From IMG/VR virus record IMGVR_UViG_3300035497_000162, positions 32,001-96,000 of that record: DNA of 64,000 bases. One strand, written 5' to 3'. Numbering within the stretch: the stretch's first letter is position 1; every line of letters begins with the position of its first letter. This document shows positions 44,867-45,183 of the stretch, piece by piece. The notes beneath the pieces are model-generated. The model had not been told where the DNA came from and ran no database searches. It was given only the letters and a program-made list of their open reading frames with translations. Source of the DNA: a virus (lineage: Duplodnaviria > Caudoviricetes). The translations under genes and the position numbers were made by a program.

Positions 44867-45183
44867 GAGGTAGTTTATCCCTTTTAAGTACATCGCTACT
44901 CGTATAGAGCTTAGGTGTAAAGTTATGTTATTTGAGGTTTTATATGTATACTAAATAACATAGTAATAAAACTCAGGATATGGTTCTATTATTAAATTAA
45001 GAGTTTTATATGTATACTAAATAACATAGTAATAAAACAATCTGTACATATATTTTGTATTAATTGTTTTATATGTATACTAAATAACATAGTAATAAAA
45101 CGAAAAAACATAAGATTAATAATTTAGAGTTGTTTTATACATATACTAAATAGCATAATAGAAAAACATCTTTAGTAAATAGT
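44867..45183 (+). CRISPR. guide cassette 6: scaffold, 4 repeats, 3 spacers, terminal guide
   Basis: Repeats at 44937, 45003, 45066 and 45132 (degenerate); spacers of 30, 27 and 30 nt. Confidence 0.93.

Follow-up and report, generated by a model that had tools for sequence, protein, structure and literature searches.

A putative spacer remnant matching the tail-sheath gene in a phage mini-array associated with a TnpB-type nuclease

Described RNA-guided systems and the phage nuclease

In the IS200/IS605 family, as exemplified by ISDra2, the 3' end of tnpB gives rise to a single scaffold RNA that serves TnpB and carries the guide at its own 3' end, some 16 nt of guide being sufficient (PMC8612924). 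Considering the TranC intermediates, clade 9 (CauTranC9) is described as phage-borne, averaging 414 aa, devoid of expanded domains and provided with a short array directed against phages, its repeats being 38 bp long and its one array comprising five of them (bioRxiv 10.64898/2026.03.27.714800). As for Cas12f (type V-F), it is a miniature RuvC nuclease that works with paired tracrRNA and crRNA, requires a 5' PAM and has its guide 3' of the repeat. In some Cas12f this PAM is C-rich, which has no bearing on the nuclease considered here. Virus-borne mini-CRISPR arrays, for their part, depend on the Cas proteins of the host and, according to Medvedeva and colleagues in 2019, are reportedly used in conflicts between related viruses.

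The DNA analysed here, hereafter the window, is a stretch of 64,000 nucleotides corresponding to bases 32001-96000 of a 119,730-bp contig from an AT-rich myophage (26% G+C), all the long ORFs of the window being on the + strand; unless genome positions are specified, coordinates refer to the window and features to that strand. The phage encodes a contractile tail sheath as well as a T4-type capsid protein, the latter only about 38% identical to its counterparts in Listeria, Bacillus and Streptococcus myophages. At 8882-10126, the window carries a gene for a TnpB-type RNA-guided nuclease of 414 aa, recognised as such by its Pfam matches (HTH_OrfB_IS605, OrfB_IS605 and Cas12f1-like_TNB), by the NCBIfam model guided_TnpB (NF040570; 207 bits for a cut-off of 100) and by conserved residues, namely the RuvC residues D198, E306 and D402 and the Zn-finger residues C372, C375, C392 and C395, all invariant in the alignment of its relatives. 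This gene is the single match to PF07282 in the genome. The nearest solved natural protein is ISDra2 TnpB and, among the solved-structure matches, TnpB chains were retrieved at E 1e-32 and no Cas12f chain at E 1e-3; as judged from its sequence, the nuclease is a TnpB and not a Cas12f. Neither a Y1 transposase (TnpA) nor IS ends were found in the genome, estimated to be 94% complete, and the nuclease is therefore regarded as a domesticated, non-transposon copy of TnpB. Its nuclease activity and the processing of its RNA are predicted. The closest relatives, L003 (54% identity) and L004 (52%), are both located on metagenome contigs, and neither the nuclease nor the scaffold described below was found in five more distant sister phages, three of them with complete genomes. 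A dead-nuclease repressor of the TldR type was ruled out by the intact catalytic residues, and a kinship with Cas12p (“hacker,” 500-700 aa) by size. Beside the nuclease gene, the gene calls of an identical contig (L301) delineate a likely counter-defence cluster at 2845-7645, with C5 and N6/N4 DNA methyltransferases and ArdA, and a Tad2-like gene (19059-19505) about 9 kb downstream of the nuclease.

Compared with these systems, the phage locus shares with the IS200/IS605 TnpB proteins, in the first instance ISDra2, the protein size, the domains, the RuvC triad and the Zn finger, and the same layout of scaffold and guide RNA, some 16 nt sufficing, is predicted for it. Unlike them, it belongs to a phage genome without TnpA or IS ends and about ten scaffolds are spread over 120 kb instead of one, most of them followed by CRISPR-like repeat-spacer units. 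With TranC clade 9, compared here by description, it has in common a nuclease of TnpB size (414 aa), devoid of expanded domains, in a tailed phage, a short array and a guide RNA split into a tracr-like part and a repeat part; unlike in that description, the phage repeats are 36 nt long, the mini-arrays are many and each has its own scaffold, while split and fused guide forms coexist and the cassettes are linked to tRNA genes. Traits of the TranC or type V kind are present, namely a nuclease gene beside a repeat-spacer array (in L003) and an anti-repeat that pairs with the repeat over 12 pairs, and by its organisation the system appears to resemble the TranC intermediates, above all clade 9. 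The likeness to Cas12f concerns a miniature RuvC nuclease, a TNB domain model and a predicted pair of tracrRNA and crRNA in which the guide follows the repeat, whereas in profile and structure comparisons TnpB comes out as the best match, and Cas1 was not found in a search of the phage genome. Like the virus-borne mini-arrays, the arrays are short and their spacers match genes of the phage's own lineage, from which the resident copy differs at a few positions (at 39192 and 1969); unlike them, the phage has its own nuclease and scaffold RNAs, and one remnant matches the resident gene perfectly. This remnant, a 16-mer, is in itself a small finding, i.e., one putative piece of spacer and a guessed motif, and the context is more interesting, namely a tailed phage with a transposon-type nuclease, minus the transposon, served by many scattered cassettes in both fused and split forms.

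Cassettes, scaffold and position of the guide

A conserved scaffold of about 70 nt occurs in the window at 8746, 10137, 39855, 43668, 44573, 44867 and 57991, and three more precede it, at genome positions 11860, 26137 and 28871. Each of the dispersed cassettes, about ten in number, is composed of a structured scaffold with an anti-repeat, followed by one to four repeats of 36 nt and by spacers of 27 or 30 nt. The repeat reads GTTTTATATGTATACTAAATAACATAGTAATAAAAC, of which cassettes 1, 2 and C keep the 3' half alone. From folding and alignment, the scaffold RNA exhibits three stems, the third one formed between GTTATGTTATTT of the scaffold and AAATAACATAG of the repeat; this anti-repeat stem comprises 12 pairs. 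In the structure as a whole, four base pairs exhibit compensatory changes, some relative to the diverged scaffold of L004, and by fold prediction a (T)AATAAAAC tail is left unpaired between the third stem and the spacer. On the basis of sequence, folds and covariation, the guide RNA would be arranged as the scaffold of about 70 nt, the anti-repeat GTTATGTTATTT paired with AAATAACATAG, the (T)AATAAAAC tail and finally the guide. Downstream of tnpB, the scaffold begins 11 nt after the stop codon in the window and within a few tens of bases in L003, L004 and L005, being followed in L003 by an array of nine or ten repeat units.

The individual cassettes differ in form. In cassette 1 (8746-8834), the scaffold runs straight into the 3' half of the repeat, after which comes the 16-nt guide AACGGCTTAAAAGTTT at 8819-8834, and in cassette 2 (10137-10280), i.e., the one starting 11 nt past the tnpB stop codon, the scaffold takes a short, sgRNA-like hairpin form (fold z-score -2.3). 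Cassette 4 (43668-43802) lies after tRNA-Thr and consists of the scaffold, one repeat and a 29-nt guide, which ends at the first base of tRNA-Gln. Cassette 6 (44867-45167), the scaffold of which directly follows tRNA-Cys, contains four repeats and three spacers, as does cassette 7 (57991-58291), where a hairpin and a T-run are found 23 nt past the last repeat, and a collapsed scaffold is present at 29584-29610. As such, split (tracr and repeat) and fused, omega-RNA-like guide forms (cassettes 1, 2 and C) coexist in one genome. At the cassettes, Rfam called tRNAs only, the likeness of the repeat to CRISPR-DR22 being below threshold.

Several minor observations concern the cassettes and their surroundings. 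After the last repeat of cassette 5, an apparent 3' half of a tRNA (44744-44781) comprises a variable loop, a T arm (GTAGGTTCAAATCCTAT) and an acceptor strand; it starts just after the anticodon position, with no 5' half nearby, and as searches of the sister records, of IMG/VR and of the sisters' tRNAs yielded no intact form of it, no junction motif can be derived from it. At 44129-44175, a degenerate 3' end of the repeat (TATATTAAATAATATAATAGTAAAAT) is followed by 21 nt of unique sequence abutting the 5' end of tRNA-Asp, a unit resembling cassette 4 before tRNA-Gln, and guide units seem to be interspersed in the tRNA cluster. In cassette 7, spacers 1 and 2 (58097-58123 and 58160-58189) are identical in their last 12 nt (ACACTATTTAAC) and differ in their first 15-18 nt, as if the guide part alone had been exchanged. 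In L003, the repeat at 4064-4099 begins with GTTTTATAGCTAT, which we take to be close to the start of the type II-A repeat of Streptococcus pyogenes; from this start and the 36/30 spacing, the 5' half of the repeat may be of type II origin. Downstream of cassette 2, an ORF at about 10328-10999 encloses a deletion of about 44 nt in another assembly of the phage (L005), and a 28-nt deletion in a further one (L302) is probably in the same ORF, a 223-aa ORF being split there into 138 and 77 aa; these single deletions are the only differences of the two assemblies from the window.

That the guide follows the repeat, as proposed in an earlier note made from the sequence of the window, is borne out on four grounds. 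Cassettes 1 and 4 possess a single repeat and then unique sequence; the guide of cassette 1 is found again in L003, as spacers S6 and S8, each directly 3' of a repeat; the pairing partner of the anti-repeat is the 3' half of the repeat; and this 3' half alone is retained in the minimal cassettes. Because of these observations, a guide located 3' of the repeat, which corresponds to the arrangement of TnpB and type V systems, can be considered well supported. The further claim that the sequences after the last repeats are extra guides stands in part. It is upheld for cassettes 1 and 4, the terminal sequence of the former being conserved in L003, it is unsupported for cassette 7 and it fails for cassette 3, in which a terminal guide is impossible because the 3' end of the last repeat is lost, whereas the end of cassette 6 is better described as a shortened spacer with the stump of a repeat behind it. 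As a candidate for outside targets, the guide of cassette 1 gave matches at 148 viral or metagenome places, which had no common context or flank and were set aside as background.

The cassette 6 16-mer and its match in the tail-sheath gene

In cassette 6, repeat 4 (45132-45167) is degenerate, with six mismatches to the consensus, and despite these changes it could still pair with the anti-repeat via one G-U. From the first base after it, in the guide position 3' of the repeat, stand the 16 nt ATCTTTAGTAAATAGT (45168-45183). Their exact identity with the tail-sheath gene at 62196-62211, as well as the ACTTT flanking this self match, had been pointed out in the earlier note and were both confirmed. 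The match is located in ORF 61159-62670, where it encodes (L)SLVNS within AGVTRGTLSLVNSL, a stretch among the most conserved of the sheath, with R343, G344, L346 and L348 invariant in 38 homologues. In the sheath homologues with readable DNA (n = 5, 60-77% protein identity), the corresponding codons read ACN TTA TCA TTA GTA AAY AGT, i.e., one or two mismatches to the 16-mer as a guide with a flank of the same kind as in the phage's own gene. Since these five sister genes mismatch by one or two positions, the remnant fits best the sheath gene of the phage itself, which is also the only known perfect target of the 16-mer.

The sequence on the 3' side of the match is informative as to its nature. 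Directly 3' of the 16-mer comes AAAAC, and the last 6 nt of the 16-mer are shared with an 11-nt sequence, AATAGTAAAAC (45178-45188), identical to the 3' end of the repeat variant found in cassettes 4 and 5. This 11-mer occurs four times in the window for 0.30 expected, two of the three other copies being the ends of the cassette 4 repeat and of the second cassette 5 repeat. In a model built after the data were seen, a 30-mer of the sheath gene followed by a repeat of the cassette 4 type gives, upon deletion between two copies of AATAGT, exactly the 21 nt observed (45168-45188). Because AATAGTAAAAC is in register and the deletion model is exact, the 16-mer is viewed as a truncated spacer with a stump of a fifth repeat, not as post-array DNA. 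The true post-array sequence begins at 45189, about 20 nt before an AU-rich hairpin with a T-run (45208-45240), as in cassette 7; from its RNA fold, this hairpin is the probable end of the cassette 6 transcript, and a consensus terminator scan left it uncalled, its stem having too few G-C pairs.

In the genome, cassettes A and B likewise end distally in a short spacer (25 and 15 nt, respectively) with a 5'-truncated repeat, a pattern that L003 exhibits three times (18, 19 and 18 nt). Such array ends are located at genome positions 12091-12139 (L150:292-340) and 26375-26409 (L151:276-310), and at L003:4429-4576. At these ends, decay seems to leave intact the 3' half of the repeat and, in the spacer, roughly its first 16 nt. 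As such, truncated spacers of 15-25 nt beside 5'-truncated repeats mark the parts apparently under selection, namely the repeat 3' half and about the first 16 spacer nt, and these parts bear on the question of how CRISPR arrays arose from TnpB guide RNAs.

Beside the 16-mer, two spacers of full length match the phage itself. Spacer 3 of cassette 6 (45102-45131), which adjoins repeat 4, matches 1969-1998 at 28 of 30 positions (E 8e-9), with mismatches at positions 13 and 29, and the spacer of cassette 3 (39961-39990) matches 39192-39221, in ORF 38640-39812, at 28/30 as well (E 1e-10), with mismatches at guide positions 2-3. With these two self spacers, one of them next to the 16-mer, an origin from the phage's own lineage has a real prior. 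All three self matches (1969, 39192 and 62196) are on the coding strand.

Taken together, the reading favoured here, with a probability of roughly 0.55, is that the 16-mer is what remains, on the 5' side, of a spacer once copied from the lineage's tail-sheath gene, within a mini-array serving the phage's own TnpB-type nuclease. Array ends would decay by deletions that run from within a spacer into the following repeat, removing the 3' part of the former and the 5' part of the latter and, in cassette 6, a deletion between the AATAGT copies would have reduced the spacer to 16 nt and the repeat to a stump of 11 nt. A transcript ending at the hairpin and T-run (45208-45240) would probably include the 16-mer, which could be loaded as a guide, 16 nt being the natural guide length of ISDra2 TnpB. 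As the phage is viable with a perfect self target, either ACTTT is not a licensed flank, or repeat 4 no longer works, or some other protection covers the phage's own DNA. The better match to the phage's own gene than to those of the sisters is in keeping with a relic, but it leaves the 16-mer without an obvious use. Among the other assemblies of the phage, which are 99.7-100% identical, no variation of the arrays was found, the end of cassette 6 being the same in all, and no strain with a full 30-nt sheath spacer and a fifth repeat was present. In one public RNA library, searched as contigs, a few short pieces of the phage occur, none of them over cassettes 4-6.

A broader and rather doubtful proposal is that the domesticated TnpB and its dispersed guides, many of them of own-lineage origin, constitute a system of RNA-guided allele exclusion, in which the 16-nt remnant would still be live. 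If so, alleles of sister phages would be cut in mixed infections, and repair templated by the resident genome would spread the resident alleles together with the cassettes. The phage's own copies would be spared either by seed mismatches, as at 39192, or by standing without a licensed motif, as at 1969 and 62196, and the self flanks ACTTT and TTAAT would then indicate what the TAM is not.

The 16-mer could also be identical to the sheath gene by chance, an AT-rich sequence beside a decayed repeat recurring there without common origin, which is held to be unlikely. Under Markov models of order 0-4, 0.001-0.005 copies of the 16-mer are expected on both strands, and 200,000 shuffles of it matched the genome at a rate of 0.001; once all the sequences that might have matched are taken into account, the probability of at least one match is 0.019 for the 11 post-repeat 16-mers and 0.029 for all 25 guides. 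The earlier note had cautioned that its short matches might be accidental in AT-rich DNA; the 13/18 alignments treated below are at chance level, and for the 16-mer a family-wise P of about 0.02 is suggestive without being decisive or overwhelming. Chance is given some credit by composition-matched random genomes, in which 0.16-0.26% of the positions start a repeated 16-mer, by an accidental and unrelated 17-mer match at 62216, 20 nt downstream in the same sheath gene, and by the overlap with the repeat stump, which shares 6 of the 16 bases (AATAGT). On the other hand, the match sets in exactly at guide position 1, the spacer next to it and that of cassette 3 are undoubtedly derived from the own lineage, and the deletion model accounts for both the end of the match and the AAAAC after it.

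The proposed CCT motif, other readings and further features of the genome

Self-matching spacers constrain the possible TAM, for which the earlier note had advanced CCT or CCN, from three self sites following CCT and from an ACC CTA conjectured in sister sheath genes. The only solid protospacer with such a flank is 39192-39221 (AACCT). Regarding the other two, the sequence after cassette 7 (58292-58309) is without significant target: its 13/18 alignment with 16585-16602 could be reproduced, a meaning beyond chance could not be attached to it. Over 26 guides, the genome holds 2257 sites with at least 13/18 matches, of which 26 are preceded by CCT for 19 expected, i.e., about one per guide. The 18 nt after the collapsed scaffold (29611-29628) likewise align with 29511-29528 at 13/18 (P about 0.07 within 200 nt), and the CCT before that site is a hint at most. 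At 1969, the last two bases of the flank TTAAT belong to the start codon of ORF 1967-2257 and the protospacer begins at the G of this ATG, behind a strong AGGAGG site; with AT fixed in that place, CCT is impossible in any allele. As to the sheath gene, the homologues read ACN TTA TCA in five out of five, without CCT. With one of three solid self sites, none of the five sheath homologues and no enrichment among the weak matches, the motif is not supported, and CCT or CCN as the TAM appears improbable. Nor was any evident type II PAM common to the 3' flanks of the three self sites.

One explanation is built upon this motif, in which the 16-mer is a working terminal guide against a sister sheath gene reading ACC CTA TCT TTA behind a 5' CCT or CCN TAM, the phage's own gene being spared by its ACTTT flank. 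One pattern fits it, since CCT, which accounts for only 0.85% of the trinucleotides of the genome, is present at the site with a broken seed (39192, positions 2-3) and absent at those with intact seeds (1969 and 62196), and the flank of the fossil cassette at 29584 has its 13/18 copy 100 nt upstream, after CCT. This explanation is judged quite improbable, as the five homologues not only lack CCT but also mismatch the guide at position 4, no allele of 1969 can carry the motif behind its AGGAGG, the 16585 site is at chance level and the 29511 site weak, and repeat 4 is degenerate.

No more can be granted to a working self guide obeying some other rule of self and non-self, be it DNA modification, or binding without cutting so as to mark or regulate the sheath gene or to attack unmodified relatives. 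While a perfect 16 nt is the natural guide length of TnpB, the phage encodes several DNA methyltransferases and the three self matches all lie on the coding strand, the intact catalytic triad speaks against a dead repressor of the TldR type, the target is in the middle of a gene and not at a promoter, and the sister sheath genes mismatch the guide, so that this explanation too is unlikely. Finally, that the cassettes are decoy RNAs against host Cas9 or Cas12 (RNA anti-CRISPRs or viral sgRNAs), with no guide role for the post-repeat sequence, is very improbable: phage-encoded sgRNA mimics are described in recent preprints and the 36-nt repeats have GTTTT...AAAAC ends, but the phage has an intact tnpB of its own with cassettes beside it, all the relatives have the scaffold behind tnpB, the pairing of the anti-repeat with the repeat 3' half and the guide placed 3' are of TnpB/type V polarity, and one guide is conserved between phages only 54% identical.

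To derive a TAM, protospacers were also sought outside the phage. Queried with the cassette 6 region, cultured phage genomes contained no external protospacer, and scans of IMG/VR and JGI metagenomes for the repeat and for repeat pairs led to none either. A scan of species genomes produced two chance matches only, and merely weak, AT-rich matches were seen in 15 sister-phage loci (about 220 kb) and in the records of five sisters (83-133 kb each, three complete). For the protein targeted at 39192, no relative above 46% identity and no protein cluster with a 90% allele was retrieved.

Apart from the cassettes, two features of the window deserve mention. Among the packaging and head genes, three paralogous ORFs (46287-47126, 48398-49171 and 52481-53188) have about 20 N-terminal codons in common (YIYETTNLINGKKYIG); the second and third exhibit weak to faint SegE GIY-YIG matches, the second also a weak NUMOD3 match, and the three are probably homing endonucleases. 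At 25472-25577, upstream of ORF 25961-26755, a 21-bp unit (CGTTCAAAAAAATACCTGACT) is repeated five times in exact tandem, in the manner of iterons.
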